DNA of 64,000 nucleotides from an uncultured Lachnospiraceae bacterium (GCA_950087855.1 CATNAD010000005.1:7816-71815); one strand, 5' to 3'; positions 14,616 to 61,446 are shown, counted from the first letter of the stretch. Numbers and translations: made by a program. The notes: generated by a model from the sequence alone, not told the origin.

Positions 14616-15551
14616 ATGGCAGCGATTACAGCAGCAATGGTAAAAGAGTTGAGAGAGATGACCGGGGCCGGCATGATGGACTGCAAGAAGGCGCTTGCGG
14701 CTACGGACGGGGATATGGATGCGGCGGTGGAGCATCTGAGGAAGAACGGACAGGCCAAGGCCGAAAAGAAGGCCAGCAGGATTGCGGCGGAGGGTATTGT
14801 CAAGACCGTGATCGACGGCAGCAGGGCCGCTATCGTGGAGGTCAATTCCGAGACGGATTTCGTGGCAAAGAATGCGGACTTCCAGGCATACGTGGCGGAG
14901 GTTGCGGCCCAGGCCGTGGCTTCTGACGCAGCGGACGTGGACGCTCTTCTGGAGGAGGCTTGGCAGGCCGATTCTTCTAAGACTGTGAAGGAAGTTCTGG
15001 TGGAGAAGGTTGCCGTCATCGGCGAGAACCTGAAAATCAGACGTTTCGAGAAGGTCGTGGAGGAGAACGGCTGCGTGGTGGATTACATCCACATGGGCGG
15101 CAAGATCGGCGTTCTGGTGGACATTGAGAGCGACGTGGTCAACGATGCCGTCAAGGAGATGGGCAAGAACCTGGCCATGCAGATCGCAGCCCTTCGCCCT
15201 AAGTACACCGACAGAAGCGAGATCAGCGAGGAATACATCGCCCATGAGAAGGAGATTCTCATGGCCCAGATCCAGAACGATCCCAAGGAGTCCCAGAAGC
15301 CTGCCAAGGTGATCGAGGGCATGGTGAACGGCCGCATCAACAAAGAGCTCAAGGAGATCTGCCTGGTGGACCAGGTATACGTGAAGGCCGAGGACGGCAA
15401 GCAGACCGTCGGCAAGTATGTGGAAGAGGTCGCCAAGGCAAACGGCACCAAGATCACGGTCAAGGGCTTCGTCCGCTATGAGACCGGCGAGGGCCTGGAG
15501 AAAAAGAGCGAGAACTTTGCCGAGGAAGTGGCAAAGCAGATGGGAATGTAA
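14616..15551 (+). CDS. tsf: Translation elongation factor Ts
   Basis: MAAITAAMVKELREMTGAGMMDCKKAL is a canonical EF-Ts UBA-like N-terminus. The gene directly follows rpsB. Confidence 0.95.
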   Translation: MAAITAAMVKELREMTGAGMMDCKKALAATDGDMDAAVEHLRKNGQAKAEKKASRIAAEGIVKTVIDGSRAAIVEVNSETDFVAKNADFQAYVAEVAAQAVASDAADVDALLEEAWQADSSKTVKEVLVEKVAVIGENLKIRRFEKVVEENGCVVDYIHMGGKIGVLVDIESDVVNDAVKEMGKNLAMQIAALRPKYTDRSEISEEYIAHEKEILMAQIQNDPKESQKPAKVIEGMVNGRINKELKEICLVDQVYVKAEDGKQTVGKYVEEVAKANGTKITVKGFVRYETGEGLEKKSENFAEEVAKQMGM

Positions 15552-16150: not shown

Positions 16151-17530
16151 ATGAGTGGAAAAAATAGAATTATAGTAGAAAAGGATGAAATGCAGGCATC
16201 CTTGCCCATGAGTGATGCCTGGATGATGCGTTTAAAAAAGCCGAGCTATTGTGACATATTTCTGCCCCTGTATTCTGCCCGGTGCCTGACGGTTGAAGCC
16301 GGAGGGCTGGAGCTGAGGGAGAAACTTCCGCCGGGCGTATGGGTTCAGGAGATGAATCTGTTGGCTTTTATCCTCCAAAAGTTTGATACGCAGCAAATGG
16401 AACAGTTTCAAAAGATGGTTTTGCCAGTTACCAGAACGTATCCGGGTGAACTGATAAACTATGCGCTGGCCATCTGTCCGGAAGCGGCAGGATTTGAAAG
16501 GGGCGACCATTTTCATCCTCAGTATACAGGGGAAAACCTGTTTGATCTTATGGAATATAAGCGTTTTCAGGACTGGAGGCAGGAGCATGCCTCTTTTCAG
16601 ATCGCCAAGTTCTATTTTCCAGTAGAGGTGTCCTGGAAGCCAGAGCATAGTTTCAGTGCTATTGAATTAACCCCTGCAGAGGCAGTCGCCTATCAGCCGC
16701 AAATATCAGAAATGATCGCCAGATGTATCCGACCGGAGAGCTGCTGGTCTGATTGGGAAGGATACGACAGACTTTTTGAACTGACGCCTTATAAAGGACA
16801 TGGGCTCTTGTATGAACGCCCGGATGTGGAGATCCGGAATGGGGAACTGTGGGGCGTGGTCGTTGCCGGAGTAAGCAGGAAGCTTACGGAAATCGATAAA
16901 GACGTCTTAAAAGATCATTTTGATGGAGGCATATGGGAGGGGTGGGGGGAACATTCCCTGGCGGTTCAGGTTCCGGGAGGGAGTCTGCAATTGTTCTTAT
17001 CTGACTGTACTAAGGTTTTCCAACAGGCAGAGGGGGAACTGGTATTGACAGAACGGGAGATGTTCTGCTGCCAGGCGCCCCATCTCAAATCCCGTTTATC
17101 GTATATGGACGGATGGGAACCGGATTTTCGAGGGGAAAGGGAGTATGGGAAGGAGCATGCGATCTGGCTGGAGCTTTTAAAAGACCGGAGACGGGTGAGG
17201 ATTCCGCTTCCGGCAGAGGACAGCAGAATCTTGGAAGAGATCAGAAGGAGCAGCGTAAATCCAGGGGAGTTTTTGCGTATCAGGATAAAAACAAGAGATA
17301 GGCTTTCCCTTTATAATGGCAGGGTTTCTGAATCTGACATTCCGGTATTGAACCAGATAGGGGAACGGATTCAGGGAATGCACGGGGATAGGAAAAAGAA
17401 ATTTTATGAAATCCTTCTGGATAAAAAATGGGGCAGCAGAAACCGGGTGCAGGGTCTTTGGGAGATATTGGAAGCTTTTTCCGGAAATGGGGAAGGAGCA
17501 TATGAAGCAGAATCAATGGGGATGAGATAA
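16151..17530 (+). CDS. Hypothetical ICE protein (distantly resembles the 20944-22104 product; possibly ArdA-like N-terminal region)
   Basis: 459-aa ORF with an AAAGGAGGGA RBS. No catalytic motif recognised. EMNLLAFILQKF...QMEQF and GELINYAL parallel DLDALNYLAKRL...EREQF and GLINLTFNL in the later ORF. Confidence 0.55.
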   Translation: MSGKNRIIVEKDEMQASLPMSDAWMMRLKKPSYCDIFLPLYSARCLTVEAGGLELREKLPPGVWVQEMNLLAFILQKFDTQQMEQFQKMVLPVTRTYPGELINYALAICPEAAGFERGDHFHPQYTGENLFDLMEYKRFQDWRQEHASFQIAKFYFPVEVSWKPEHSFSAIELTPAEAVAYQPQISEMIARCIRPESCWSDWEGYDRLFELTPYKGHGLLYERPDVEIRNGELWGVVVAGVSRKLTEIDKDVLKDHFDGGIWEGWGEHSLAVQVPGGSLQLFLSDCTKVFQQAEGELVLTEREMFCCQAPHLKSRLSYMDGWEPDFRGEREYGKEHAIWLELLKDRRRVRIPLPAEDSRILEEIRRSSVNPGEFLRIRIKTRDRLSLYNGRVSESDIPVLNQIGERIQGMHGDRKKKFYEILLDKKWGSRNRVQGLWEILEAFSGNGEGAYEAESMGMR

Positions 17531-17727
17531 AATAGTAATGAAAATATGTAGAAGAAGTATTAGACATTCGATAATTAGAAATCGGAGGGGGGAAGAGGCA
17601 GGAGATAGGTTTTTGAATAGCGGTAATTCTGGTAGCTGCTGTTAACTGATTATGAAACAGATTTGAGGATGAATTATTGAGAAATATAAATTGTTTGTGG
17701 AAATTAGAAGATTTTGTAGTGGAAATA

Positions 17728-17736
17728 TGATATAAT
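17728..17736 (+). promoter_or_regulatory. Candidate extended -10 promoter for the HEPN-STAND gene
   Basis: TGATATAAT lies 25 nt upstream of the ATG at 17761, in an AT-rich spacer. No good -35 element. Confidence 0.35.
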
Positions 17737-17760
17737 GTTTTTAGAAAGGATGCGAATAAG

Positions 17761-20202
17761 ATGTATTTATCGTTAAAACAACATGATTTATTTCGTACAT
17801 TGCTTATGGGGTTTGAGGTTCCTTTTCGATCATTTGTTTCTGAAATTATTTTAAATAGTTATGATACATATGAGAAATTTAGGAATACATTGATTGCAAA
17901 GAAAAATGTTTTATCGTCTTCTGATCCTATTTTTTTAAGAAACACATTACCGCAAGTTTGTTCAGATGCGAAATGTAAGAAATTATATGATAGCCTTATG
18001 ACAGCAAACAATAATAAGGGAGTAAATGTTATTGTTATAGATCAAGATGTTCCGATGGTTGGAGCATTGAATATCGTATCAATGGCTTTTTTAGAAGATT
18101 TCTCGGAATTATATCTTTTAGTTGGTGGTTATACAGCATATTGTACTTTAGCTGAAAAATATAGATATGCTAGAAATAAATTAGATCACCCTGGTTGCAA
18201 AACATTAGAAGATACAGATTTAATTCCGGTATTGTCATTTGTAAAAGATATTGTTACTTTTTTGGATATAGCATATTTTGGACAGAAAGGCAAGGAGGAA
18301 CTTTTAAAGGAAATAAATATTTTGCAAAATAAGAAACTTAGAATACCGATTTCTAAACATAATTTTTCAGAAATGCCTTATGGTGAATCAAAAATTGTAT
18401 GTAGACAAAATGAAATTGAATATTTAAAAAAATTTATCTGTGGGAATCCCGGAGATTTAAGAAAACAGCACTCTTGTTGTGTATATGGTTATGGTGGCGT
18501 AGGTAAAACAGCATTAGTTTTGGAAGTGGCTAAAGAAATAGTACAGGATCTATGGGACGAAGACTCATTAAATGAATATGAACCTCATTATATTTTGTTT
18601 TTTTCTGCAAAAAGAACCAAGCTAGATATTACGTCAGCTAGTGGAAAAATTATTGAACAGCGTATTCATAGGTATTTTGAAACAGCAGAGGATTTGATAA
18701 ATCTTATTCATAAAGCTTTAGAATTGGACGATTTTCGTGAATTTCATAAAGAGGGAATTATTATAGTTGATAATCTGGAATCTCTTGCAAAGAAAGAACG
18801 GAGTAAAATCAAATACTTCATTGAATCGCAGACACCAGCAGAAATGCAATTTTTAGTTACATCTCGTAATAGTGAAGAATATGAAATGAATTATAAATTA
18901 TCGGGATTTGAGAAAGAAACAGGCGTTAATTTTATTAATCAATATATTCTTGAAAATATTTTAGATCTTGAGTTAAATTCAACTGAAATTGGAGAATTAT
19001 TAACACTGGCAAAAGGTAATACATTAGTCTTGGTACTTTGCTTACGTAGATTAAGTCAACGTTTATCTAGTATTAGTGGACTGCGTTCAGAGTTTTCAAG
19101 TGTAAATGCATGGAAAAATATCCGAAATAGTTTAAAAAACTTTCCAGGAAATGCATATGAAGTTATAAGTGAATTTATGTTTAAAGATACATTTGAAGAA
19201 ATAGAAACAGTTTTTGTAGATGATGCACTATTGTTTTATAAAGTTCTTAAAATTTTTGCGGTTTATCGGGATGATAGTATTGACATAAACACTATTTGCT
19301 TATTGTCAAAAGAAGCTTATCCACGGGTTGAGGCGGTAACAGATACTCTTTGCAATTATCTTATTTTGGAAAAGAGTGGAGAACAATATAACCTTAATAG
19401 TTTTGCTGAAAAATATATTATAAATAGATTCATGCCAGATGCGGCTACTTTTAATGAATTATCAATAGAAATAAAACAGAGAGAGAATCAGGTAAGGAAA
19501 GCTTTAGAGGAGCTTGATTTTGATATAAGAAATCGCCCAGAGTTGGGAAAAATTTTAAGAGATTGGTGTATTTTATCAGATAGTGATAGGATTACAGCAG
19601 CAAATATGTATCGTTGGTATGGAGAAGCGAAGAGAGAATGTAATAAAGATAGTAGGTTTAGAGCACAGGCAGTAGTTGAAGATGTAATTAAAGCTAGTAA
19701 AGAAGCAGAAGAGATTACAGCACATCCTTATGTAAAATATCAAAAGGCTAGAATATTAAGGTTGATTGATAGTTCGAAAATTTTAAATGAAGCCCATACT
19801 AAAGAAATTGTAGAAGGATTTAGAAACGCTATATTTGTTATTAAAACGGTAGAGCAATATTCAATGATTCAAAATACAAAGTCATATGCCTCTCTATTGT
19901 GGTTATTTGGACAGTATTTGTCGGATATTGATCAAAAAGAAGAGTCTATTCGATATCTTGAAGAAGGGCGAATAGCTTTTGAAACTATGAAAATTGAAGA
20001 CAAAGAGTACTATCAATGTATCACAAAATTAGGAACTATATATTTGGACTATTTTGAAGAAGATAAAAAAAATCATAAAAAATATTTGGAGATGGCACGT
20101 GAAATTAACAACATATTACAAAAATCATTTAAAAAAATAGGAAAATCTAAAAATTTTGCGACTATATTAAAACAACGAATTCAAAATTATAAGAATTATT
20201 AA
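17761..20202 (+). CDS. HEPN (Swt1-like) - NB-ARC/STAND P-loop NTPase - helical/TPR-like repeat protein (NLR/Avs-like candidate defence protein)
   Basis: RNKLDH (R138-H143, an Rx4H HEPN motif). Walker A GYGGVGKT (243-250). IIIVDNLE is Walker-B-like, FLVTSRNSE RNBS-B-like and GNTLVLVL GLPL-like. The C-terminal ~330 aa are helical-repeat-like. The gene is visibly AT-rich relative to its neighbours. Confidence 0.75.
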   Translation: MYLSLKQHDLFRTLLMGFEVPFRSFVSEIILNSYDTYEKFRNTLIAKKNVLSSSDPIFLRNTLPQVCSDAKCKKLYDSLMTANNNKGVNVIVIDQDVPMVGALNIVSMAFLEDFSELYLLVGGYTAYCTLAEKYRYARNKLDHPGCKTLEDTDLIPVLSFVKDIVTFLDIAYFGQKGKEELLKEINILQNKKLRIPISKHNFSEMPYGESKIVCRQNEIEYLKKFICGNPGDLRKQHSCCVYGYGGVGKTALVLEVAKEIVQDLWDEDSLNEYEPHYILFFSAKRTKLDITSASGKIIEQRIHRYFETAEDLINLIHKALELDDFREFHKEGIIIVDNLESLAKKERSKIKYFIESQTPAEMQFLVTSRNSEEYEMNYKLSGFEKETGVNFINQYILENILDLELNSTEIGELLTLAKGNTLVLVLCLRRLSQRLSSISGLRSEFSSVNAWKNIRNSLKNFPGNAYEVISEFMFKDTFEEIETVFVDDALLFYKVLKIFAVYRDDSIDINTICLLSKEAYPRVEAVTDTLCNYLILEKSGEQYNLNSFAEKYIINRFMPDAATFNELSIEIKQRENQVRKALEELDFDIRNRPELGKILRDWCILSDSDRITAANMYRWYGEAKRECNKDSRFRAQAVVEDVIKASKEAEEITAHPYVKYQKARILRLIDSSKILNEAHTKEIVEGFRNAIFVIKTVEQYSMIQNTKSYASLLWLFGQYLSDIDQKEESIRYLEEGRIAFETMKIEDKEYYQCITKLGTIYLDYFEEDKKNHKKYLEMAREINNILQKSFKKIGKSKNFATILKQRIQNYKNY

Positions 20203-20332
20203 AAACATTTTATATTTTATATGGAGGTTAAAATTACCAATATAAAAAATCGTAATTAAATTAACAACGTACTCCCCGGCATTTGTATCTTTTGCAAAAG
20301 CCGGGAATTTTTTTGTTTGGGAAGGAGAAGGA

Positions 20333-22724: not shown

Positions 22725-22889
22725 ATGGAGATCACAGTGGAAATCGAAGAACCGTTATGGGGATTGCTTCTGCTCCAGGCGGCAGAGGAAGAGCTTCCGG
22801 TGGAAGAGATTGTGGAACGTGCAGTCAGGAATTATGGGAAAGGGGATGAGAACATTGCCCGCAGATGGAAAGAAAGGAATCACGGTTAA
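22725..22889 (+). CDS. Possible small ORF (54 aa), hypothetical
   Basis: ATG preceded by a strong TAGGAGGAAA RBS. It overlaps the start of the next ORF and is below the ORF-track cutoff. Confidence 0.3.
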   Translation: MEITVEIEEPLWGLLLLQAAEEELPVEEIVERAVRNYGKGDENIARRWKERNHG

Positions 22890-23517
22890 AGTAGATGAAT
22901 CGCTCCACGCAGAAGTGCGGCAGGCGCTGGAAAGTCAGGGTATGACGATGTCGGAGTTTGTGTCATTGGCTTTAAAGGAGTGGCTTCATCCGAACATGCA
23001 AAGGAAGGGGGAAACAACGATGGGAAACATGAGGACGCTGGCCTTTCAGGTGCCGGAAGATTTATTCTGGAAAATCAAGGATTATCTGCAGAGAAACAAA
23101 ATGACGCAGAAAGACTTCGTAATCGGGTTGATTGAGGCGGAGCTGGAACGGGATCTGGCAGAACGGGAGGGATTGGAAGAGGCGCCGGGGATTCCGGAGG
23201 AAATGGTATCTGAGGAGGCAGAGACTGTGTCAGAAGAGTCCGAAGGTGTCTGGGAAGATCCGGAGGAGCCTGCTCTGGAAGAAGCTGTGTCGGAGGAACC
23301 TGGAGATGTTTCGGAAGAGTCCGGAGATGTCTCGGAAGGTCTGGAGGAGCCTGTTCTGGAAGAAACGCCGGAGATTTCGGAGGAAACAGTATCTGAGGAA
23401 GAAGAGACTGTGCCGGAAGAGTCCGGAGATGTCTCGGAAGGTCCGAGGGAGTCTGTTTCGGAAGAGGAGGAGATGGAAGATGAAGAGGAAGGCATGGGGC
23501 TTTCCATGGGAATGTGA
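22846..23517 (+). CDS. Tandem ribbon-helix-helix-like protein with acidic repetitive tail
   Basis: Two CopG/RHH-like units (ITVKVDESLHAEVRQALESQGMTMSEFVSLALKEWL and LAFQVPEDLFWKIKDYLQRNKMTQKDFVIGLIEAELE), then an E/S/V-rich tail built from repeated DNA. Confidence 0.55.
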   Translation: MRTLPADGKKGITVKVDESLHAEVRQALESQGMTMSEFVSLALKEWLHPNMQRKGETTMGNMRTLAFQVPEDLFWKIKDYLQRNKMTQKDFVIGLIEAELERDLAEREGLEEAPGIPEEMVSEEAETVSEESEGVWEDPEEPALEEAVSEEPGDVSEESGDVSEGLEEPVLEETPEISEETVSEEEETVPEESGDVSEGPRESVSEEEEMEDEEEGMGLSMGM

Positions 23518-23936
23518 GGGGGAATGGAACGTATGCAGACGAGAGGTGGGAATTGGAGAAAGTAAAACGAATCGAGGCGGAGGCGCTTCGCCAGATGGAG
23601 GGAAAGGAAGGGCTTATCCTGCAAGGCTGCGGGGGTAATCTCAGTGAGTGGGTGGAGGGAATCAACGACCTGCTGAGAGAAGAGGGGATTCTGTTAGAAA
23701 GCACGGAATTCTCAGAGAACGACTGCCTGGCTTTTGTGAATGACGGGCTTACCTGCCTGCTGTTTCCGTTTTCAGGGAAGGTGAAGCTTGATATGGGAAG
23801 GCTCGCCGTCTGGCGGATCGTGACCTATGAAGGGTTCGGCGGTACCTGGCTTTCCGATTATGTGGAGAACCGGCTGAGCGTATCTGTGGGTGGGGAACCG
23901 GCTTCCGAAGAAAAGGGGATGGACATGCAGCCATGA
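23514..23936 (+). CDS. Hypothetical ICE protein (DUF4313-like)
   Basis: 140-aa ORF translationally coupled on both sides. GLILQGCGGNLSEWVEGINDLL and VWRIVTYEGFGGTWLSDYVENRL recall the DUF4313 pattern (recollection only). Confidence 0.5.
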   Translation: MRGNGTYADERWELEKVKRIEAEALRQMEGKEGLILQGCGGNLSEWVEGINDLLREEGILLESTEFSENDCLAFVNDGLTCLLFPFSGKVKLDMGRLAVWRIVTYEGFGGTWLSDYVENRLSVSVGGEPASEEKGMDMQP

Positions 23937-23962
23937 GCTGCGGAAAGGAGGAAAAATTTCCA

Positions 23963-24958
23963 ATGAAAAGTCCGGTATCCAGAGTGGGAAATAAAACAGC
24001 CCTTCTCCCCGTCCTCTATGCATTGTTTCCGGTAACCTACGGCCGGTTTATCGATGTGTTCGGAGGCTCCGGAAGCGTGCTTCTTGGAAACCGGGAAACC
24101 TGTGCTTTTGAGGTGTACAATGACTATGACCGGAACCTGGCCAACCTGTTCCGCTGCATGAAGGAGCGGACGATGGCGACTATCCGGGAGATTGGCTTCT
24201 GCCATTTGAACTCCAGGGAGGATTTTCAGGCCATCCGGCGGTTTTTCGAGAATGAGCAGTTTGACGAACGGTACCTGTCAGAAGAACTGAAGCTGACGGA
24301 GATCCTTTTCCCGCCGCCGGAGGCAAAGGAGTTACAGGAGATCCGGACCCGGATCACAGAGGATTATGACGTGCGCCGTGCGGCCATGTTTTTAAAGCTT
24401 CTCCGTTACAGCTATTCCAGCGGCGGGAGATCCTACGCCTGCCAGCCCTTTGACATCCGGAAGCTGTTCGGCCTGATCTTCGGACTTCAGGACCGACTGG
24501 CGAACGTGGTGGTGGAAAATCAGGATTTCGAGGCCCTGATCCGGCATTATGACCGTCCCGATGCGTTTTTTTACGCCGACCCTCCTTACTTTTCCACGGA
24601 GGACATGTATGTGGCACAGTTTGGACGGGAGGATCATGGGAGGCTTAAGGACACCCTGGCAGGAATCCGGGGGAGGTTTCTGCTTTCCTACAACGACTGC
24701 CCGGAGATCCGGATACTTTACAGGGATTTTCCGCTGTTTGATTTTTCCCGCCCCCATTCCATGGCGCAGCGGTATGAGGCGGGGAAGGAGTTTAAAGAGC
24801 TGCTGATCGGCAACTATGACCTGTATGAGCGGGAGAAGGCAAAACCTTCCCAGTTGACATTGTTTGACTTTTGTGGGGAAGACGGCGGAGGGAGAGCGGA
24901 GGAAGCGTATGAAAAAATCTTAAAAGAGAGGATTGTGCAGTGCAGGATAAAAAGATAA
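23963..24958 (+). CDS. D12-class N6-adenine DNA methyltransferase (Dam-like), orphan
   Basis: FxGxG AdoMet motif DVFGGSGSV and catalytic motif YADPPYF. AGGAGG RBS before the ATG at 23963. No restriction endonuclease gene adjacent. Confidence 0.85.
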   Translation: MKSPVSRVGNKTALLPVLYALFPVTYGRFIDVFGGSGSVLLGNRETCAFEVYNDYDRNLANLFRCMKERTMATIREIGFCHLNSREDFQAIRRFFENEQFDERYLSEELKLTEILFPPPEAKELQEIRTRITEDYDVRRAAMFLKLLRYSYSSGGRSYACQPFDIRKLFGLIFGLQDRLANVVVENQDFEALIRHYDRPDAFFYADPPYFSTEDMYVAQFGREDHGRLKDTLAGIRGRFLLSYNDCPEIRILYRDFPLFDFSRPHSMAQRYEAGKEFKELLIGNYDLYEREKAKPSQLTLFDFCGEDGGGRAEEAYEKILKERIVQCRIKR

Positions 24959-33166: not shown

Positions 33167-33781
33167 ATGGCTGGAAAAAAGGAGAAGCGGCAGAAAAAGA
33201 AACGGGGCCGCTCCCTGCAGGAGTTTCTTGGTATCCGTACCTTTACAAGATACGGGCTTTTGGTGGGAAAGGCAGAGCTGCTTTTTTACCAGGTTGCCCC
33301 GACCAACATCTCGGTGCTTTCCCATGCGAACATTGAGATTAAGATCCGCCATCTGATGATGCTACTCTCTGCAATCCCGGACATTGAGATCACCTGTACG
33401 GATTCCAGTGAATGCTTTGATGACAACAAGTCCTATCTGCGGGAGAGGCTCCTTGCGGAACGGAGTCCGGCAGTGCGGAAGCTGTTAAAGAAGGACGTGG
33501 ACTTTTTAGAGCATATCCAGATGGAGATGGCGACCGCAAGACAGTTCTTGTTTCTTGCGAGGCTTAAGGATCTCAAGGAAAAGCATGTGTTTGAGACAGC
33601 CAACCGTGTGGAAAAGGTGATCGCAGAGCAGGGGTTTGAAGTACACCGGATGAAAAAGGCGGAGATCAAACGGTTCCTGGCCCTCTACTTTGAGGCCGCC
33701 ATGAACGGGGATGCCATGCCGGATATCGACGGGGAGCAGTTTTATGAAGAAGATGAGGATGGGGAGGAAGAAGGATGTTGA
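33167..33781 (+). CDS. VirB4-associated N-terminal-domain-like protein (separate ORF)
   Basis: 205 aa with a basic N-terminus (KKEKRQKKKRGRS). Its stop overlaps the start of the VirB4 ATPase ORF (ATGTTGA). The two ORFs together are about the length of single-chain Firmicutes VirB4 proteins. Confidence 0.5.
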   Translation: MAGKKEKRQKKKRGRSLQEFLGIRTFTRYGLLVGKAELLFYQVAPTNISVLSHANIEIKIRHLMMLLSAIPDIEITCTDSSECFDDNKSYLRERLLAERSPAVRKLLKKDVDFLEHIQMEMATARQFLFLARLKDLKEKHVFETANRVEKVIAEQGFEVHRMKKAEIKRFLALYFEAAMNGDAMPDIDGEQFYEEDEDGEEEGC

Positions 33782-35607
33782 GACGCAGGCAGAGGGTGTT
33801 GACGCCGGGGCAGGTGGAGGAGATCCGCACCAAGGATTTTTTTGACATGGTCCTGCCCGGCGTGTTGAAGTTCCAGTCGGACCATTATATTTTGGGGGAC
33901 AGTTACCGGTGCGTGTGGGCGGTCCGGGAATATCCGCCTTCCACGGAGGAACAGGCGGTTCTTTCCCAACTGGCAGACCGGAGCGGTGTGACCCTGCGCA
34001 TTTACCACCGCCTGGTGGAGGCAAATGAGCAGCGGAAGATCATCCAGAATGCCACCCGCAGGAATCAGTTAAAGTCCGGAGGCACGGACATGAACGAGAC
34101 CATTGAGGCGGAAGGGAACCTGCAGGATGTGATTGAGCTTTTAGCGAACCTGAGAAAGAACCGGGAGCCGCTTCTCCACTGTGCGGTATTTATCGAGTTA
34201 AAAGGGGGAAGCCTGGATACGTTAAAGGAATTGCAGAGTGAGGTGGCCATGGAGCTGACCCGTGCCAAGGTATCCGTGGACCGGCTGACGCTCCGGCAGA
34301 AGGAAGGCTTTCTCTCTGTCCTGCCCATCGGGGCGAACCAGTTTGGCGCACAGTATGAGCGGGTACTTCCCGCTTCCAGCGTGGCGAACCTCTATCCCTT
34401 TAACTTTTCCGGAAAGACGGACCCGCAGGGGCTTTATATCGGCCGGGATAAATACGGCACGAACATCCTCGTGGACTTTGACCGGAGGGCCGAGGACAAG
34501 ACCACGGGGAACATCCTGATCCTTGGAAATTCCGGGCAGGGGAAGTCCTATCTCTTAAAACTGATCCTCACGAACCTCCGGGAATCGGGAAAGCGGGTGA
34601 TCTGCCTGGACCCGGAAGCAGAGTACGGGGAGTTGTGTGAGTCCCTCGGAGGCTGCTGCATTGATTTCCTTTCCGGGGAATACACCATCAATCCGCTGGA
34701 GCCGAAAGCGTGGAGCGACGGCATGGAAGGTGCAGAGGCGGCCGCTCCGGAGGCGTTTAAAAAGGCGACGAGGCTGTCCCAGCATATCGCTTTCTTAAAG
34801 GACTTCTTCCGGAGCTACAAGGATTTCACGGACACGCAGATCGATACCATTGAGATTCTGCTGTCCAAGCTCTATGCCAGGTTCGGCATTACGGACAGCA
34901 CGGATTACGGCGGGAAGAAGCCGTCGGATTTTCCGGTCATGGAGGATTTTTATAAGCTGTGTGAGGAGGAGTTCTACAGCTACGACAGAAAAAGGAAGTA
35001 CCTGTATACGGAAGAGACTCTGCAGGAGGTGTGCCTCGGCGTCCACTCCATGTGTGTGGGTGCGGAGAGCCGGTATTTCAATGGGCATACCAACCTGACC
35101 GACGGGGATTTTCTGGTGTTCGGTGTCAAGGGCCTCATGGACACCAACAAGCGGTTGAAGGATGCCATGCTCTTTAATATCCTGTCCTACATGTCCAACG
35201 AGCTTTTGGGGAAGGGGAACACGGCCGCCTCCATTGACGAGCTGTACCTGTTCCTCACCAACCCGACCGCCATCGAATACATCCGCAATGCCATGAAGCG
35301 GGTGCGGAAGAAGGAGTCCTCGATTCTCCTTGCGTCGCAGAACATCGAGGACTTCCTGATCCCGGACATCCGGGAGTTTACGAAGCCCCTGTTTTCCATC
35401 CCGACCCACCAGTTCCTGTTCAATGCCGGGCAGGTGAACCCGAAGGAATACATGGATGCCCTGCAGGTGGAGGCGAATGAGTTTGAGCTGATCCGCTATC
35501 CGGAACGGGGGACCTGCCTGTATCGCTGCGGCAATGAGCGGTATCTCCTTCAGGTGATCGCACCGGATTACAAGTCGGCGCTGTTCGGAAAGGCAGGCGG
35601 ACGATGA
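33775..35607 (+). CDS. VirB4-family conjugal transfer ATPase
   Basis: Walker A GNSGQGKSY and Walker-B-like AASIDELY. Overall resembles TcpF/Orf16-type VirB4 proteins. Confidence 0.85.
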   Translation: MLRRRQRVLTPGQVEEIRTKDFFDMVLPGVLKFQSDHYILGDSYRCVWAVREYPPSTEEQAVLSQLADRSGVTLRIYHRLVEANEQRKIIQNATRRNQLKSGGTDMNETIEAEGNLQDVIELLANLRKNREPLLHCAVFIELKGGSLDTLKELQSEVAMELTRAKVSVDRLTLRQKEGFLSVLPIGANQFGAQYERVLPASSVANLYPFNFSGKTDPQGLYIGRDKYGTNILVDFDRRAEDKTTGNILILGNSGQGKSYLLKLILTNLRESGKRVICLDPEAEYGELCESLGGCCIDFLSGEYTINPLEPKAWSDGMEGAEAAAPEAFKKATRLSQHIAFLKDFFRSYKDFTDTQIDTIEILLSKLYARFGITDSTDYGGKKPSDFPVMEDFYKLCEEEFYSYDRKRKYLYTEETLQEVCLGVHSMCVGAESRYFNGHTNLTDGDFLVFGVKGLMDTNKRLKDAMLFNILSYMSNELLGKGNTAASIDELYLFLTNPTAIEYIRNAMKRVRKKESSILLASQNIEDFLIPDIREFTKPLFSIPTHQFLFNAGQVNPKEYMDALQVEANEFELIRYPERGTCLYRCGNERYLLQVIAPDYKSALFGKAGGR

Positions 35608-39908: not shown

Positions 39909-40045
39909 GGCAGGTGAAACGGCCGGGACAGGGAAGGATATGCAAAGCGATATTTTCATTTCGTGTAGGTCGTGATATAATCATACGGAATGAAATCAAA
40001 ATTTTTCTGGGGAAATTAAAGGGTCAGGCGAAGGGACGTGGATAA

Positions 40046-40975
40046 ATGTCGGAGTTACGGATTCATAGTCTGTCAGAATTTGTCAATGTGATTTGTGAGT
40101 TGGATGGCACTTTGTTTCGGAATGGCATAAATAAAAATGAGAGTTTGCTTTTCCGTGGACAGTCCGATACGCAGTTTAAGTTGCTTCCATCGCTTGGGAG
40201 GAATCGAAAGTTCGCCTGTGACATTTCCATTTTGGATGAAGAACGCAATCTGATTGAGATGGCCAGGTTTAAACTGCCCGAAGTTTTTCATAAGGAATTA
40301 GAGCCGCTGGAGCTGTTAGCATTACTACAGCACCACGGGATTCCGACTCGTCTTTTGGACGTTACAGAAAATGCGTTTGTAGCGTTGTACTTTGCCTGTT
40401 GTTCGGATGATGAAAAAGACGGAGAGGTATTTGCTTTCAAACATAACGAACAGAATGTGGTAAACTATCCGGTTGTCAATGCCATAGCAGACAGCTATCG
40501 CTTTGCCCGTGGTACCTTTTGCACACTTGATCTTTTTTATGGAGCTGTGATTACTCAGCCGTATTTCCTTGAACAAAAGCAGACACATGAGATTTGCCAT
40601 GAGACGAAGGAGTCCGGTGGAAGATGGATAGCAGAATGCTGTAGCAAAATATTTTTTGTATATGCTCCGGTGAGGAGTCTGCGCCAGCAGATGCAGCGTG
40701 GGAGGTACATTCTATTTCCCAATCGGATTGCGCCCTATGGAGATCCGGATATACCTTGTTTCCAAAAAGTTATTGATCCTATACCGAAGGATCATGAGAG
40801 CATTTGTGGGAGAATCACCGTCCCGAAAGAGTTGAAAGGGAATATTTTGAAAGAGCTGAGATTATTCGGAATCAGTAAAGAAACGCTATTTGCGGACAGC
40901 GTGGATGTTGTATGTGAGGAAATCACAAGTACATTCAGAAGAAAAGTGAAGGGAGAGATACCCTGGATAAAGTAG
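40046..40975 (+). CDS. FRG-domain protein
   Basis: LLFRGQSDTQFKLLPSLGR and LLALLQHHGIPTRLLDVTENAFVALYFA are hallmark FRG-domain motifs. The gene is lower in GC than its flanks. Confidence 0.8.
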   Translation: MSELRIHSLSEFVNVICELDGTLFRNGINKNESLLFRGQSDTQFKLLPSLGRNRKFACDISILDEERNLIEMARFKLPEVFHKELEPLELLALLQHHGIPTRLLDVTENAFVALYFACCSDDEKDGEVFAFKHNEQNVVNYPVVNAIADSYRFARGTFCTLDLFYGAVITQPYFLEQKQTHEICHETKESGGRWIAECCSKIFFVYAPVRSLRQQMQRGRYILFPNRIAPYGDPDIPCFQKVIDPIPKDHESICGRITVPKELKGNILKELRLFGISKETLFADSVDVVCEEITSTFRRKVKGEIPWIK

Positions 40976-41081: not shown

Positions 41082-43928
41082 ATGGCACGTCTGGTAACGA
41101 AGTTCAAATACCTGAAGCCGGATCAGGAAAAGCCCATCGGTGGATATGTCACCTACATTGCCACCCGTGAAGGAGTGGAAAAAATCGACGAGTCCTTCAG
41201 GATGGCTCCAGCCAGCAGAAAACAGAAAAAGCTCATTGAAAAAATCCTGCGGGATTTTCCGGACAGCAAAGGAATGCTGGAATATGAAGATTATAAAAGA
41301 GAAATGACGGTGGGAGCAGCCTCTGAGTTTATCATTCGTGCCATCGAGGACAACGCCTGTGAGATTCTGAATCAGAAAACCTATGCCGACTACATTGGCA
41401 CCCGAAAAGGTGTGGAACGGTTCGGCAGCCATGGTCTGTTCACAGACGACGGCGTGCAGGTCAGACTGAACGAGGTCTCACAGGAACTAAATACTCATGG
41501 AGGAAATGTGTGGACACTCATCGTCTCTCTGCGCCGGGAGGATGCGGAGCGCCTTGGGTTCAACAATGGTATCCGATGGCGGGATATGCTGCGGACACAG
41601 ACGGAGACGCTGGCCGACAGTTTAAAAATCCCTATGGAACACCTGCGCTGGTATGCGGCTTTCCACAATGAAAGCCACCATCCCCATGTTCATCTGCTGG
41701 CCTACTCTACTGTGGAGAACGAAGGCTTCCTCACGAAGCAGGGTGTCCATAAGGTGCGCTCTTCTCTGGCAAAGGATATTTTTTCACAGGATCTTCTATG
41801 CATGTATGAGAAACAGACTACCCATCGGGATGAACTGCGCCTTAAAAGCAGAGAATGGATTGCAAAGATTGTATCCAGCATAAATGCCGGAACCTATGAC
41901 AATCCCGAAATCGAAGAGCGGCTGTTACGTCTGGCTGAACGGCTATCCAGGACGAAGGGGAAGAAAGTGTATGGATACCTGAAAGCGGATGTGAAAGCCC
42001 TGATCGACTCCATTGTTGACACCCTGGCGGAGGATGAAAGAATCGCCGCTCTCTATCACCTGTGGTACGAACAGAGGGAGGCGGCCAGACGGGTTTACAC
42101 GGAGGCCCCGCTGGAGAGGGTGCCTCTTTCACGGAACAAGGAATTTAAGTCAATAAAGAATGCCATCATCCAGGAGGCTCTTGGCCTTCACGCCGACCAG
42201 GGAGAGATGGAAGATGGGGAACCGACCGACATATCGGAAAGGGAATTGCCAGAAGAATCGGAACTCATGTTATCCGGCCAGGAAGAACTGATGGAGACAG
42301 AGGTGCCGGAGGATTCCGCTTTTTCTTTCTCCGGAGGATGGAAAAAGAAGAAAGATACCTGGTGGACGGAAGAATATAAGAAAGCAAGGACTTTTCTTTA
42401 TGGCACCAAAGAGTCAAAACCTGACTTTGAAAAAGCCTACGCCGGCCTGGAGGAAGAAGCAGTCCGTGGAAACGGTTTCGCTATGTATGACCTTGGAAAA
42501 ATGTTCCTTTCCGGCCTTGGGTGTGAAAAGGCAGAACAGGCTGCACAGAAATGGTTTGCGGACGCTTATCGTGCTTTTATGGACAGAGAATCACGGGAAG
42601 AAGATCCTGGCTATCTGCAGTATCGGATTGGAAAGCTCTATTCGTTCGGACATGGCGTGGAACAAGATGATGGGAAAGCGGCCAAGTGGTATGAAAAATC
42701 TGTTGCAGAGAAGAATCCTTTTGCCGCCTATGCCCTTGGAAGTCTCTATTACCGGGGGCAGGGCGTGGAGCAGGATGAAGAAAAAGCGTTCCGGTTGTTT
42801 ACGATTGCGGCCAATGACAAAGATAAGCCAAACGCCTATGCCCAATATGAGCTTGGCCGGATGTGCAGAGATGGAATCGGAACGGCTCCGGACAAAGAGG
42901 TCTCAGAGGACTGGTACCGTAGGGCTTATCAGGGTTTCCTTTCCATTGAACAGAATATGGCAGATGATAAGCTCTATTATCGCCTGGGCCAGATGAATCT
43001 CACCGGTACGGGAACTGAAAAAAATTTGGAACTGGCCGGGACATATTTTGAAAAGGCCGCCGAACTGGACAATGCGGATGCCTTGTATGGGTTGGGAAAA
43101 CTATACTTGAACCGGGAGTTTACTGGACGAGATGGAAATCGTGCCGTGGAATTTCTCGTGGCGGCGGCAAAGAAAGACCATGATTATGCCATGTACCTGC
43201 TGGGAAAGTTATTTCTGGAAGGAAACGAGGTGCCGAAGAATCCGGGCTATGCGTTGCGATGGTTGGAAGAAGCGGCAGAAAAAGAAAATTCCCCTGCAGA
43301 GTGCCTTCTTGGGAAAACGTTGCTTTTGGGGAAAGAGATAGAGCAGAACATTCCTCGTGCCCTTTTCCTGCTGGAAAAATCCACTGCGAGAGGCAATACC
43401 GGCGCTGCCTATGTTCTCGGAAAAGTGCTGTTGGAGGGCGAGAGGTTTCCGCAGGATATTCCAAAGGCCATGGATCTGCTTACCTTTTCCGCAGAAAAAG
43501 GATGTTCTGCGGCACAGTATCTTCTTGGAAAGCTTTATCTGGCCGGGGAAGGAATTTCAAAAGATGTCAATGTCGCTCTGTACTGGTTTCAGAAGGCCGC
43601 AGAGCAGGGCCATTCTTTTGCAGGCTATCAACTTGGAAAATTATTTTTCTATGGCCGGGAGGTGGCGCAGGACATGGAAAAAGCGATTTCTTTTTTGACG
43701 GCTTCGGCCAGTCAGGGAAACGCTTATGCGGCGCAGCTACTTGCCAGGATCAGAAGCAACCGGAACTGGCCGGCGTCCCTCGGAAGCCTGCGCCTTTTGC
43801 TGTATTTGGCCAGAATATTGCAAAACCGCATTGAAAATGACCGCAGGGACGTGACTGGCGGCGTAGACTGGAAGCTCAGACATAAGATAGATGAGAAGAA
43901 ACAGGCCCATGGCTTAAAACAGGGCTGA
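41082..43928 (+). CDS. MobL/MOBP-type relaxase fused to a long Sel1-like repeat (SLR) array
   Basis: The N-terminus LVTKFKYLKPDQEKPIGGYVTYIATREGVEKI and the histidine cluster HNESHHPHVHLLAY mark the relaxase. The C-terminal ~500 aa carry more than 10 Sel1-type repeats (A.YDLGKMFLSGLGCEKAEQAAQKWF and similar). Confidence 0.85.
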   Translation: MARLVTKFKYLKPDQEKPIGGYVTYIATREGVEKIDESFRMAPASRKQKKLIEKILRDFPDSKGMLEYEDYKREMTVGAASEFIIRAIEDNACEILNQKTYADYIGTRKGVERFGSHGLFTDDGVQVRLNEVSQELNTHGGNVWTLIVSLRREDAERLGFNNGIRWRDMLRTQTETLADSLKIPMEHLRWYAAFHNESHHPHVHLLAYSTVENEGFLTKQGVHKVRSSLAKDIFSQDLLCMYEKQTTHRDELRLKSREWIAKIVSSINAGTYDNPEIEERLLRLAERLSRTKGKKVYGYLKADVKALIDSIVDTLAEDERIAALYHLWYEQREAARRVYTEAPLERVPLSRNKEFKSIKNAIIQEALGLHADQGEMEDGEPTDISERELPEESELMLSGQEELMETEVPEDSAFSFSGGWKKKKDTWWTEEYKKARTFLYGTKESKPDFEKAYAGLEEEAVRGNGFAMYDLGKMFLSGLGCEKAEQAAQKWFADAYRAFMDRESREEDPGYLQYRIGKLYSFGHGVEQDDGKAAKWYEKSVAEKNPFAAYALGSLYYRGQGVEQDEEKAFRLFTIAANDKDKPNAYAQYELGRMCRDGIGTAPDKEVSEDWYRRAYQGFLSIEQNMADDKLYYRLGQMNLTGTGTEKNLELAGTYFEKAAELDNADALYGLGKLYLNREFTGRDGNRAVEFLVAAAKKDHDYAMYLLGKLFLEGNEVPKNPGYALRWLEEAAEKENSPAECLLGKTLLLGKEIEQNIPRALFLLEKSTARGNTGAAYVLGKVLLEGERFPQDIPKAMDLLTFSAEKGCSAAQYLLGKLYLAGEGISKDVNVALYWFQKAAEQGHSFAGYQLGKLFFYGREVAQDMEKAISFLTASASQGNAYAAQLLARIRSNRNWPASLGSLRLLLYLARILQNRIENDRRDVTGGVDWKLRHKIDEKKQAHGLKQG

Positions 43929-45426: not shown

Positions 45427-47328
45427 ATGGGAAACATTACCATGCTTGTGCTTGTGGCGGCCATCATGCTTGGCTCCCTGGGGGGAATCTCATTGATTGC
45501 TCACATGTACACCTTGAATATCAAGAATAAGACCGTCGGAAACGGCCAGCACGGGACCGCAAGATGGGCGGCCAAAGCGGAAATCCGGGAGACCTATCAA
45601 CACGTCCCTTTTGAACCGGAGCTGTGGCGGAGGGGGAAACATCTTCCCACGGCCCAGGGGATTGTGGTGGGCTGTACAACTTCTAAAGGGAGAACGACAG
45701 CCCTTGTTGATACCGGCGACGTCCATGTATTGATGATCGGTGCGGCAGGCGTCGGAAAAACCGCTTACTGGCTTTATCCCTGCATTGAGTATGCCTGCGC
45801 CTCCGGAATGAGCTTCCTTTCCACCGACACCAAGGGAGACGTCATGCGGAACTATGGAACCATCTGCAGGGAGTATTATGGGTATCATGTATCGGTGATT
45901 GACCTTAGAAATCCCACCCGGTCAAATGGAAACAACCTGTTACACCTGGTCAACAAATATATGGATTTGTATCAGGCGAACCCGGACATTCTGGTTTACA
46001 AAGCCAAAGCGGAAAAGTATGCAAAGATTATCTCAAAGACCATTATTCTTTCCGGCATGGACGCCGTCTCCTTTGGGCAGAACGCATATTTCTATGACGC
46101 TGCCGAAGGGCTGCTGACGGCAACCATTTTGCTGGTGGCGGAATTTTGCGAACCGAAAAAACGTCATATCGTGTCCGTGTTTAAAATCATTCAGGAGCTG
46201 CTTGCCCCGTCCCAGAAGAAGGGCAAGAACCAGTTCCAGCAGCTCATGGAACTGCTCCCCAATGACCACAAGGCGAAATGGTTTGCCGGAGCCGCTCTGA
46301 ACACGGCGGAGCAGAGTATGGCCAGTGTCATGAGTACGGCACTGTCCAGACTGAATTCCTTTCTGGACTCGGAGCTGGAACAGCTTTTATGCTTTGACAC
46401 GGAGATTGACGCAGAGAAGTTCTGCAGGGAAAAGTCCGCCATTTTTGTCATCATGCCGGAGGAGAATCCCAATACCTTCTTTATGATCAGCTTAATCATT
46501 CAGCAGCTATACCGGGAGATCCTGGCGGTCGCCGACGAGCAGGGAGGGAAGCTTGCGAACCGCTGCGTGTTCTTCTGTGATGAATTCGGGACCCTGCCGA
46601 AGATAGAATCCGCTGAGATGATGTTTTCTGCTTCCAGGAGTAGGCGGCTGCAGATCGTACCGATCATCCAGTCCTTTGCCCAGCTTGATAAAAATTATGG
46701 CAAGGAGGGGGCGGAGATCATTGTTGACAATACACAGCTCACCCTGTTTGGCGGTTTTGCCCCAAACAGCAGCTCCGCAGAGATCCTCTCCAAAGCCCTG
46801 GGCAGCCGCACCGTTATGTCCGGTTCCGTCAGCCGCTCCAAAAACGATCCGTCCCAGTCGCTGCAGATGATGGAGCGGCCGCTACTGACACCGGACGAAC
46901 TCAAATCCATGCCGAAGGGACAGTTTGTGGTAATGAAAACCGGAGTCCATCCCATGCGGGTAAAGCTAAAGTTATTCTTCCAATGGGGAATCCAGTTTGA
47001 TGAGAACAACCCATATGCCATAGAGGACAATGGCGGCAGGACGGTGGAGTATGCGGAGAAAAAGGAAATCATGGACGGTATTGTCCGGAAATACCATCCG
47101 GATTGGCTGGAGGAGCTCCCATCGGCGGAGGAGCAAGGAGGAGGCGGACAGGGTCACGCACAGGGCTCAGGAAACGATCAGCAATTTAAATTATCCGTAA
47201 AACCTCCTGAGAAGAAAAGCAGAACAGGTGGTATGAATTTAGTTCCTCCAAGCCGCAGACACATACCGCCTGAAAACGGATCAGAGAGACCTCAGTTCAC
47301 AGAAAAATGGCAGGAGGGTGAAAGCTGA
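45427..47328 (+). CDS. Type IV coupling protein (VirD4/TraG family)
   Basis: N-terminal TM helices, Walker A GAAGVGKT and Walker-B-like VFFCDEFG. Confidence 0.9.
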   Translation: MGNITMLVLVAAIMLGSLGGISLIAHMYTLNIKNKTVGNGQHGTARWAAKAEIRETYQHVPFEPELWRRGKHLPTAQGIVVGCTTSKGRTTALVDTGDVHVLMIGAAGVGKTAYWLYPCIEYACASGMSFLSTDTKGDVMRNYGTICREYYGYHVSVIDLRNPTRSNGNNLLHLVNKYMDLYQANPDILVYKAKAEKYAKIISKTIILSGMDAVSFGQNAYFYDAAEGLLTATILLVAEFCEPKKRHIVSVFKIIQELLAPSQKKGKNQFQQLMELLPNDHKAKWFAGAALNTAEQSMASVMSTALSRLNSFLDSELEQLLCFDTEIDAEKFCREKSAIFVIMPEENPNTFFMISLIIQQLYREILAVADEQGGKLANRCVFFCDEFGTLPKIESAEMMFSASRSRRLQIVPIIQSFAQLDKNYGKEGAEIIVDNTQLTLFGGFAPNSSSAEILSKALGSRTVMSGSVSRSKNDPSQSLQMMERPLLTPDELKSMPKGQFVVMKTGVHPMRVKLKLFFQWGIQFDENNPYAIEDNGGRTVEYAEKKEIMDGIVRKYHPDWLEELPSAEEQGGGGQGHAQGSGNDQQFKLSVKPPEKKSRTGGMNLVPPSRRHIPPENGSERPQFTEKWQEGES

Positions 47329-58704: not shown

Positions 58705-58800
58705 TTGTAGAATTTTGGTGAAAATTAAATGCAAAGTGTCGGGAAGAGGGAGCTATAAAGTTTTTAATTTTTTGATACTGAGATATAGGAAATAAATCAT

Positions 58801-59742: not shown

Positions 59743-59944
59743 AGTTAATTAAATGCAATCTGGAATTTGACGGAGACTTTGGGACTGACAGATGAGTAAG
59801 TGATGGGGGCGTTGAAGATGCTGAAGACAGATGTAAATAATATATAGCAGTCTAAGAAAGAAAGTACAAGATTATCTCGTAACGAAATAGCGAGAAGCGT
59901 ATATAAAGATTTGAAGAGATAACAATTGAAAGGAAAAGAAGCCG

Positions 59945-61265: not shown

Positions 61266-61446
61266 AAAAACAGGACACCCCTCACCTCCGCATAAATCCG
61301 ACACTTTCCGGAAAAGTTCGCAAAGCAGATGATCAGTAGAAATTTGTCGAAATTAGGCGAATAGAGATAAGAAAAACCCTTGTGGATGGTGCGAAAATGC
61401 CATTTACAGGGGTTTTGATGTTAGAAACCGCATTCTATAACTTCAG

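Follow-up and report, generated by a model that had tools for sequence, protein, structure and literature searches.

A predicted HEPN-STAND protein at the edge of a Lachnospiraceae conjugative element, probably a single-protein antiviral system

A stretch of 64,000 nucleotides (nt) from an uncultured Lachnospiraceae bacterium (GCA_950087855.1 CATNAD010000005.1:7816-71815; hereafter the window, whose positions are used throughout) carries an integrative conjugative element (ICE) inserted after rpsB-tsf. Within this ICE lies a plus-strand open reading frame (ORF) for a protein of 813 amino acids (aa), here called the HEPN-STAND protein, in which a HEPN-like domain, a STAND NTPase and a helical-repeat region follow one another. 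An initial annotation, made by reading the sequence, had proposed an 813-aa product, and ORF 17761-20202 bears this out. The motifs that it quoted are all found at the residues it named, namely RNKLDH (R138 to H143), GYGGVGKT (243-250, including K249), IIIVDNLE (333-340), FLVTSRNSE (364-372) and GNTLVLVL (419-426). The ATG start codon is taken to be correct because the N-terminus, MYL, is nearly invariant among homologues. The gene and its features are as follows:

17550-20300, no strand assigned: AT-rich block (GC ~0.21-0.35) with sharp edges, containing the promoter region, the ORF and the terminator (GC profile)
17728-17736, plus strand: extended -10 box TGATATAAT, a perfect match 25 nt 5' of the ATG, plausibly the gene's own promoter (read from the sequence)
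17745-17750, plus strand: ribosome-binding site AAAGGA, 10 nt 5' of the ATG (read from the sequence)
17761-20202, plus strand: ORF of 813 aa plus stop, ATG start, for the HEPN-like domain, STAND NTPase and helical-repeat region
17761-18345, plus strand: N-terminal all-alpha domain, aa 1-195, predicted HEPN RNase effector (model, weak HEPN-clan matches)
17815-17829, plus strand: helix-1 motif FEVxxRS, with E19 invariant and R23 invariant or nearly so (alignment)
18172-18189, plus strand: R138-N-K-L-D-H143, HEPN-type Rx4H motif (alignment, model)
18394-18912, plus strand: NTPase domain, aa 212-384, opening with the pre-P-loop motif VCRxxE, of which R215 is invariant (Pfam, model, alignment, Foldseek)
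18487-18510, plus strand: Walker A motif GYGGVGKT, aa 243-250, preceded by strand 238-242 (alignment, model)
18754-18780, plus strand: Walker B strand GIIIVDNLE, aa 332-340, with D337 and N338 invariant and E340 at least 90% conserved (model, alignment)
18859-18867, plus strand: sensor-1 motif T367-S368-R369, where strand 362-368 ends, with R369 invariant (model, alignment)
18913-19431, plus strand: helical domain (GNTL 419-422, GLPL-like) and winged-helix domain, aa 385-557 (model, alignment, Foldseek)
19441-20199, plus strand: C-terminal helical-repeat (TPR-like) region, aa 561-813, presumed sensor (model, alignment)
20275-20314, plus strand: terminator-like element, a hairpin at 20275-20305 (-19.9 kcal/mol, z = -3.25) followed by T7 at 20308-20314 (folding)

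The assignment of the central part of the protein to the STAND NTPases is solid. In a deep alignment of 45 full-length relatives, reaching down to 25% identity, E19, R138, H143, N201, R215, G243, G245, G246, G248, K249, K284, D337, N338, R369, N420, L422, W602 and P656 are invariant and R23 is invariant or nearly so, and the conservation of the motifs quoted above is far beyond chance. As seen in the full-length model (AlphaFold2 with the family alignment; predicted local distance difference test (pLDDT) 80.5), the Walker A motif is paired with a Walker B aspartate that ends a hydrophobic strand (332-337). The sensor-1 arginine comes after a strand and is followed by a helical domain with its GLPL-like motif (model helices 385-501, of which residues 447-484 are of low confidence) and by a winged-helix domain whose beta hairpin spans 536-545.

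Profile and fold comparisons are in line with this anatomy. The Pfam scores of the protein itself lie below the cutoffs for AAA_16 (30.3 bits against 32.6), NACHT (19.5 against 26.7) and NB-ARC (12.7 against 23.5), with a further weak match to NPHP3_N, and only a generic AAA model exceeds its cutoff. Distant relatives pass, with 24.9 bits against the 23.5 required for NB-ARC (model positions 8-239 of 248), 28.5 against 26.7 for NACHT, and 35.5 and 32.7 against 32.6 for AAA_16. A Foldseek search of the PDB with the full model places MalT at the top, then the plant NLRs RPP1 and Roq1, and NLRC4, together with many chains of AAA+ clamp-loader, RuvB and ORC proteins. At the sequence level, neither the single protein nor the family profile found more in the PDB than P-loop similarity to Ras and ORC1, and no solved close relative emerged. 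The domain had been described as an NB-ARC-like STAND NTPase. Its STAND character holds, on the strength of the motifs, the fold matches and the scores of the relatives, and it has the NB-ARC-like P-loop GxGGVGKT and TSR motif; membership of the NB-ARC (AP-ATPase) clade itself is not supported for this protein, given an NB-ARC match with an E value of 0.074, a Walker B motif that reads D337-N338 and not DD, and, at the position aligned by eye with the MHD motif, F548-A549-E550 with no conserved histidine.

Beyond the winged helix, residues 561-813 form a confident stack of helical hairpins in the full-length model, so that the helical, TPR-like nature claimed for the end of the protein is retained and its length is revised from ~330 to ~250 aa. 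This is the most variable domain, with a mean pairwise identity of 0.25 in the deep alignment against 0.38 for the NTPase. Inside it lies a conserved motif, T-x-HPY-x-K-x-QKAR (aa 653-664; 19717-19752), in which P656 does not vary in the deep alignment and the conservation of H655, Y657 and Q661 is 90% or higher. Such a motif is unusual in a hypervariable sensor, and a ligand or interface site may lie here.

In the N-terminal domain, the helices form a bundle that accommodates a large insert. A model of this domain by itself (pLDDT 91; predicted template modelling score 0.87) contains helices at 5-33, 37-49, 57-66, 69-84, 100-109, 111-120, 124-141, 151-167 and 178-193. None of the 45 relatives departs from R138 or H143, the conservation of N139 is 90% or higher, and the family consensus of the motif is R-N-x-L-S-H-P. 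In the secondary structure of the model, R138-N-K-L ends helix 124-141 and H143 occupies the next loop, before helix 151-167, which agrees with the published location of the Rx4-6H motif of HEPN domains, straddling the close of a helix and the loop that leads on to the following one (PMC3710099). Inserts between HEPN helices 2 and 3 are frequent (PMC3710099), and in our model helices 37-120 would be an insert of this kind. The presence of R, N and H, invariant at the canonical spacing and position, together with the invariant glutamate of helix 1, argues for catalysis, and E19 and R23 are, from their conservation, candidate active-site partners of the Rx4H motif.

Weak homology converges on the same assignment. 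When 32 divergent N-terminal domains were scanned against Pfam, every family that matched more than one member belonged to the HEPN clan (HEPN_Swt1 with 5 members, DUF4145 and Ymh with 3 each, RiboL-PSP-HEPN and Abi_2 with 2 each). Six models of the clan, HEPN_Swt1 most often, give weak alignments to one segment; their motif-bearing C-terminal parts fall on residues ~113-170, and Abi_2 spans residues 13-152. The motif, its position, this convergent weak homology and precedent make the identification of the domain as HEPN well supported, albeit not proven, and Swt1-like is the best available guess at its subfamily, much as the initial annotation had it. Its proposal of a ~170-aa domain ending in RNKLDH survives in part: the motif is there, and the domain extends to ~195 aa and does not end with the motif because a core helix (151-167) follows it.

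The HEPN-STAND protein belongs to a discrete, unnamed and uncharacterised protein family. It has more than 300 close homologues, and one source labels its copy just 'ATP-binding protein'. When 1.84 billion cluster representatives were scanned exhaustively with HMMER, only 237 clusters at 50% identity were recovered; their complete proteins, ~800 aa long, align end to end down to ~25% identity. The family is rare and patchy across phyla. A full-length member occurs in ~28 of 185,579 species representatives, the 22 genomes with members that we surveyed span Bacillota, Bacteroidota, Desulfobacterota and Pseudomonadota, and partial matches occur in actinobacterial contigs. Members are also found on five IMG/VR viral contigs, and a tblastn search of the PLSDB plasmids gave no match.

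The domains of the family appear to be exchangeable. One relative, P0198 (773 aa), retains both the NTPase and the C-terminal region (31% identity, E = 2e-57), and its residues 1-170 are unrelated to the HEPN-like domain (hhalign probability 0.1%). This N-terminus begins WDVFIAYHG, which may be TIR-like; no homologue of the domain was found in the PDB or in a database of 5.8 billion sequences. The swapping of effectors seen in P0198 is typical of Avs and NLR-like proteins.

The surroundings of family members support a defence or mobile context. We scanned three genes on each side in the 22 genomes, giving 106 neighbour proteins, among which the commonest families were ResIII, N6_Mtase, Eco57I, DEAD helicases, phage integrases and components of type I, III and IIG restriction-modification (R-M) systems, with Fic also present; these are plain tallies (ResIII, for example, accounts for 5 of the 106). 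One homologue adjoins MmeI-like methyltransferases, and another locus contains two methyltransferases, ParE and a transposase. Elsewhere the neighbours are Thoeris ThsA/ThsB with AbiH, RhuM with a serine recombinase, or, inside a polysaccharide locus, a HipA-like toxin with a PD-(D/E)xK nuclease. The expectation that homologues would lie in defence or mobile neighbourhoods is supported by R-M, Thoeris, AbiH, toxin and integrase genes as well as by ICEs and prophages. No neighbour gene is conserved across the family loci in the 22 genomes, in agreement with the earlier description of the gene as stand-alone, and the HEPN-STAND protein most likely acts alone. The pattern that marks Avs-type systems, a tripartite protein encoded singly beside defence genes or on mobile elements, is therefore found here.

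Between the ICE edge and the HEPN-STAND gene lies a 459-aa ORF (16151-17530) of intermediate GC (~0.47-0.52) and with no Pfam match. We considered it as a partner gene and rejected it, as it travels with the gene in one element only and is absent beside homologues elsewhere.

Comparison with related ICEs indicates that the gene occupies a variable slot. The block directly downstream of it, encoding a 204-aa protein, an ArdA-like protein, DUF4314 and a D12 methyltransferase, is conserved in related ICEs, which differ just upstream of it. In one related lineage (L054 615-3015 and L056 615-3015) the slot holds a CBASS-like module composed of a SMODS/DncV-like nucleotidyltransferase, a 217-aa protein and a SLATT_4 effector, and in other related ICEs it holds small unknown genes. 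Because the slot carries the HEPN-STAND gene here and a CBASS-like module in a related ICE, we interpret it as a hotspot for defence cargo beside anti-restriction genes. Exact-protein look-ups of the flanking ICE genes recovered only the same element, and the variability of the slot was seen via homologues.

The base composition of the gene sets it apart from this backbone. GC drops from ~0.46 to ~0.29 at the left edge (~17.55 kb) and climbs from 0.21 to 0.53 at the right edge (~20.3 kb), and the HEPN-STAND block, at ~30%, contrasts with flanks of 0.53-0.57. The lower GC relative to the ICE flanks (~30% against ~53%), already remarked in the initial annotation, shows a foreign or defence-like composition. 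It had further been read as the mark of a recent, separate acquisition. Separate acquisition is supported by the variable slot among related ICEs; as a sign of recency we rejected low GC, because the family gene is AT-richer than its flanks in 22 of 22 genomes, by 3-32 GC points, so that the composition is a family-wide property that does not date the acquisition.

The block also appears to carry its own expression signals. The proposed extended -10 box is present 25 nt from the ATG, making a promoter for the HEPN-STAND gene plausible from the sequence; it is one of two TGNTATAAT sites in the 64-kb window, where ~1 is expected by chance, and a generic sigma-70 scan showed the AT-rich stretch of the gene to hold no excess of promoter-like sites. 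The second site (39973-39981) lies ~65 nt upstream of ORF 40046-40975, at the onset of another GC dip (0.43). At the other end of the gene, the hairpin and T tract listed above match the terminator-like element that had been proposed.

A relative in a filamentous prophage offers an indirect link between the family and phage resistance. The one match in a tblastn search of phage genomes is ORF2 of the Pseudomonas filamentous prophage PfAC11 (27% identity over 91% of the query, E = 5e-71), which retains EVALRG, RNYLSHP and GYGGVGKT. This gene (L061, OR863245.1, 481-2841; P. aeruginosa) lies in the accessory end of the prophage beside repressor and excisionase genes, and its depositors annotated it as 'SeAvs3'. 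It has been published as the 'Avs' system of the prophage; isolates with PfAC11 are resistant to four lytic phages, and a PAO1 lysogen of PfAC11 gives fewer plaques with two of these phages, a partial resistance (PMC11878078). This resistance is indirect evidence for the family, because the whole prophage with PfsE was used and the homologue is distant.

From these observations we conclude that the HEPN-STAND gene probably encodes a single-protein antiviral STAND system, Avs-like or NLR-like, that acts by abortive infection, and that it belongs to the variable cargo of the ICE, at the left edge of the element. What we observe here is the architecture, the conservation of the motifs, the absence of a conserved partner gene and the genomic contexts, and the effector-NTPase-sensor layout of Avs and bacterial NLR type that had been proposed for the protein is borne out by its domain anatomy, conservation and context.

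The RNase activity, the trigger, the oligomerisation and the phenotype we infer, and they may be connected as follows. The resting protein would be a monomer kept inactive by a bound nucleotide. Its C-terminal region (aa 561-813) would bind an infection cue, most likely a phage protein by analogy with Avs1-21. Binding would permit ATP-dependent oligomerisation through the NTPase, helical and winged-helix core (K249, D337 and R369, with presumed activity), and this would pair the N-terminal HEPN-like domains and turn on an RNase formed by R138, N139 and H143 with the aid of E19 and R23. HEPN RNases need a dimer to build their composite Rx4-6H active site, and for this reason oligomerisation would be expected to act as the switch. 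Cleavage of cellular and/or phage RNA (mRNA, tRNA or rRNA) would then stop translation and abort the infection.

A more ambitious proposal, which we regard as rather doubtful, is that the family constitutes a distinct, unnamed Avs-type clade that combines HEPN RNA cleavage activated by oligomerisation with a compact sensor of ~250 aa, and that uses ICE hotspots to arm the recipient. The slot lies directly upstream of leading-region anti-restriction genes, and from this position the gene would arm the recipient cell soon after transfer. As for the cue, the near-invariant T-x-HPY-x-K-x-QKAR would be easier to reconcile with recognition of a small conserved ligand, a nucleic acid or a host factor than with that of a variable structural protein of a phage.

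Several results weigh against the antiviral interpretation or against its RNase component. All HEPN-clan matches (Swt1, RiboL-PSP, Abi_2, DUF4145, Ymh, Apea and HEPN) are sub-threshold, with E values from 1e-4 to 0.4, and they are partly driven by the very Rx4H motif under test. A Foldseek search with the N-terminal model returned nothing significant (best E 0.56 in the PDB and 0.35 in BFVD), the 'HEPN domain protein' 4nqf appearing only at rank 30 with E = 3.7, and the N-terminal family profile found no HEPN chain among PDB sequences. Probably no structure of a Swt1/Abi2-type HEPN has been solved, and the Foldseek null is not a refutation of HEPN; the structural comparison supports the STAND core, with its matches to MalT, RPP1, Roq1 and NLRC4, and leaves the HEPN half of the prediction without a significant match in PDB or BFVD. 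A search of the protein against PADLOC v2, including the AVAST I-V models, gave 0 matches at E <= 1, which is also consistent with the initial view that this is not one of the named Avs types. At ~250 aa, the C-terminal region is shorter than typical Avs sensors, and its conserved motif could point to a conserved ligand and not to a variable phage protein. Finally, the PfAC11 phenotype comes from a whole prophage that includes PfsE, and its family member is just 27% identical.

Among the 45 relatives, PADLOC v2 gave only P-loop-level matches, to mad8, PtuA and BrxF. The 'mad8' lead, present in 8 of the 45, maps to the P-loop region 225-347, and we dismissed it as generic ATPase similarity.

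The same architecture could serve conflicts between mobile elements or the maintenance of the ICE, the RNase being triggered by rival plasmids or ICEs or by loss of the element. We hold this to be unlikely. It would suit the position of the gene at an ICE edge beside an anti-restriction block (the ArdA-like protein, DUF4314 and the orphan D12 methyltransferase), the carriage of members by ICEs and prophages, and the frequency of toxin-antitoxin neighbours (ParE, HipA-like, PemK and MazE-like). However, many members sit in chromosomal defence islands without a nearby mobile backbone, as beside Thoeris and AbiH or beside R-M genes, and no antitoxin-like partner is conserved. Tested STAND proteins of the same layout sense phage proteins (PMC13581612), and anti-phage effects were seen in the PfAC11 lysogen.

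A role outside immunity is somewhat less probable still. The protein would then be a STAND signalling or regulatory protein whose N-terminal domain, an inactive HEPN or another helical fold, works as a non-catalytic adaptor or nucleic-acid binder. The invariance of R, N and H at the canonical HEPN spacing and of the helix-1 glutamate, across very divergent members, is difficult to square with such a role, as is a family that is rare, patchy and consistently AT-rich and whose loci lie in defence islands and mobile elements. While the top fold match of the full model, MalT, is a transcription regulator, the HEPN-STAND protein contains no DNA-binding output domain. The proposal draws otherwise on the lack of a significant structural or sequence match to HEPNs of known structure and on a phylogeny in which defence and non-defence STAND clades are interspersed (PMC13581612).

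A third unlikely explanation, no more probable than the last, makes the protein the HEPN-ATPase component of a multi-gene, R-M-like system related to DUF499 and BREX, with an N6-methyltransferase and a helicase-nuclease as partners and no autonomous sensing: Ava_2192, which joins HEPN to a DUF499 AAA+ ATPase in R-M operons, falls in the same Swt1-like HEPN group (PMC3710099), DUF499 ATPases carry an N-terminal HEPN endoRNase (PMC12839542), and some family loci directly adjoin N6 methyltransferases or ResIII helicases, but no DUF499 match appears in Pfam at E <= 1, neighbours vary in size and family from locus to locus with no conserved partner (ResIII, again, in 5 of 106), the nearest methyltransferase in the window (23933-24958) is part of the conserved ICE block and also occurs in ICEs without the HEPN-STAND gene, and the C-terminus is a helical repeat and not an array of winged helix-turn-helix (wHTH) or RRM modules. 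The resemblance to the Ava_2192-type ATPases is confined to a Swt1-like HEPN placed N-terminally on a P-loop ATPase of ORC/STAND type and to R-M-rich surroundings; the HEPN-STAND protein, unlike them, has no obligate methyltransferase or helicase partners.

Set against known systems, the antiviral STAND interpretation places the protein closest to Avs (Avs1-Avs24, bNACHT; Gao 2022, Kibby 2023, Lee et al. 2026). Like them, it unites on one chain an effector at the N-terminus, a STAND NTPase extended by helical and winged-helix domains, and helical repeats at the C-terminus, and it shares their loci in defence islands and mobile elements, the effector swapping seen in P0198 and a patchy spread across phyla. 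The effectors known from described Avs proteins are nucleases or NADases, whereas the effector here is a predicted HEPN RNase, and the repeat region after the winged helix is short (~250 aa). A 2026 survey of STAND proteins (Lee et al.) describes 589 clades, 198 of them defence-associated, and names Avs7-24; its clustering of sensors was limited to those of 400 aa or more, and it describes no characterised Avs with a HEPN effector (PMC13581612). HEPN is among the effector classes listed for bacterial NACHT proteins (bNACHT), and our searches of the literature on HEPN-STAND, HEPN-NLR and HEPN-Avs turned up no experimental work.

The domain combination itself has precedent. Bacterial proteins joining an N-terminal HEPN to STAND NTPases were mentioned in 2013, and Table 1 of that study (Anantharaman et al.) lists Swt1-like HEPN fused to a STAND-ATPase and TPR, with 'STAND-ATPase, TPR, S1' fusions in Npun_F6454, MED222_16016 and Desac_1927 (PMC3710099). 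The HEPN-STAND protein has the same order of N-terminal HEPN, STAND and TPR, often with R-M genes nearby, and differs in having no S1 or cold-shock domain and in its ~195-aa N-terminal domain with a large helical insert. It resembles the Swt1-like/Abi2 group, as described, in its R-N-x3-H motif, which closes helix 3 and in which a conserved polar residue follows the arginine, in HEPN_Swt1 as the most frequent Pfam model and in an Abi_2 match that covers most of the domain; unlike members of that group, its Pfam scores all fall under the gathering thresholds. With AbiD/AbiF, ApeA, RnlA and PrrC/RloC-type HEPN proteins it shares a predicted metal-independent RNase as the killing module of abortive infection. 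Those stand-alone HEPNs are controlled by an antitoxin, an R-M partner or another regulator, whereas the HEPN of this protein would be under the control, in cis, of a STAND switch and a repeat sensor.

We therefore regard this as an uncharacterised family with a design already catalogued computationally in 2013, and not as a new kind of system; because HEPN-STAND-TPR fusions were predicted then and Avs biology is well developed, the value of the finding is incremental. If confirmed, it would add a family with an RNase output to the antiviral STAND, or bacterial NLR-like, repertoire, and would offer a simple model for the activation of a dimer-dependent HEPN nuclease by induced oligomerisation, a logic akin to that of RNase L. 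The family is probably undercounted in surveys of the defence systems of gut Clostridia and of Pf prophages, because PADLOC v2 misses it. The variable slot at the ICE edge is useful for mining new defence cargo beside anti-restriction 'leading' genes.

The remainder of the window contains the conjugation and integration genes of the ICE and, just past the integrase, a second AT-rich block (57211-61153; GC 0.33-0.39):

33775-35607: VirB4-like ATPase of the ICE
CHAP hydrolase of the ICE
41082-43928: MobL relaxase of the ICE
45427-47328: coupling protein of the ICE
55576-56850: integrase of the ICE
57211-58704: AAA_15/AAA_21/AAA_23 ATPase in the second AT-rich block
58801-59742: 313-aa ORF of no assigned function in the second AT-rich block
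59945-61153: YhcG/DUF1016 nuclease-like protein in the second AT-rich block

The second AT-rich block looks like candidate defence cargo at the other end of the ICE. A PemK-family toxin gene lies upstream of the integrase. The leading-region block includes a highly acidic 235-aa ORF (22810-23517) that has no Pfam match and consists in part of three imperfect 87-nt repeats (23196-23465). A direct repeat of 29 nt (15514-15542 and 61303-61331), imperfect at 76% identity with 12 nt exact (GCAAAGCAGATG), has one copy at the 3' end of tsf and the other before purF. These two copies may represent att-like ends of a ~45.8-kb element, a weak signal that could be chance.

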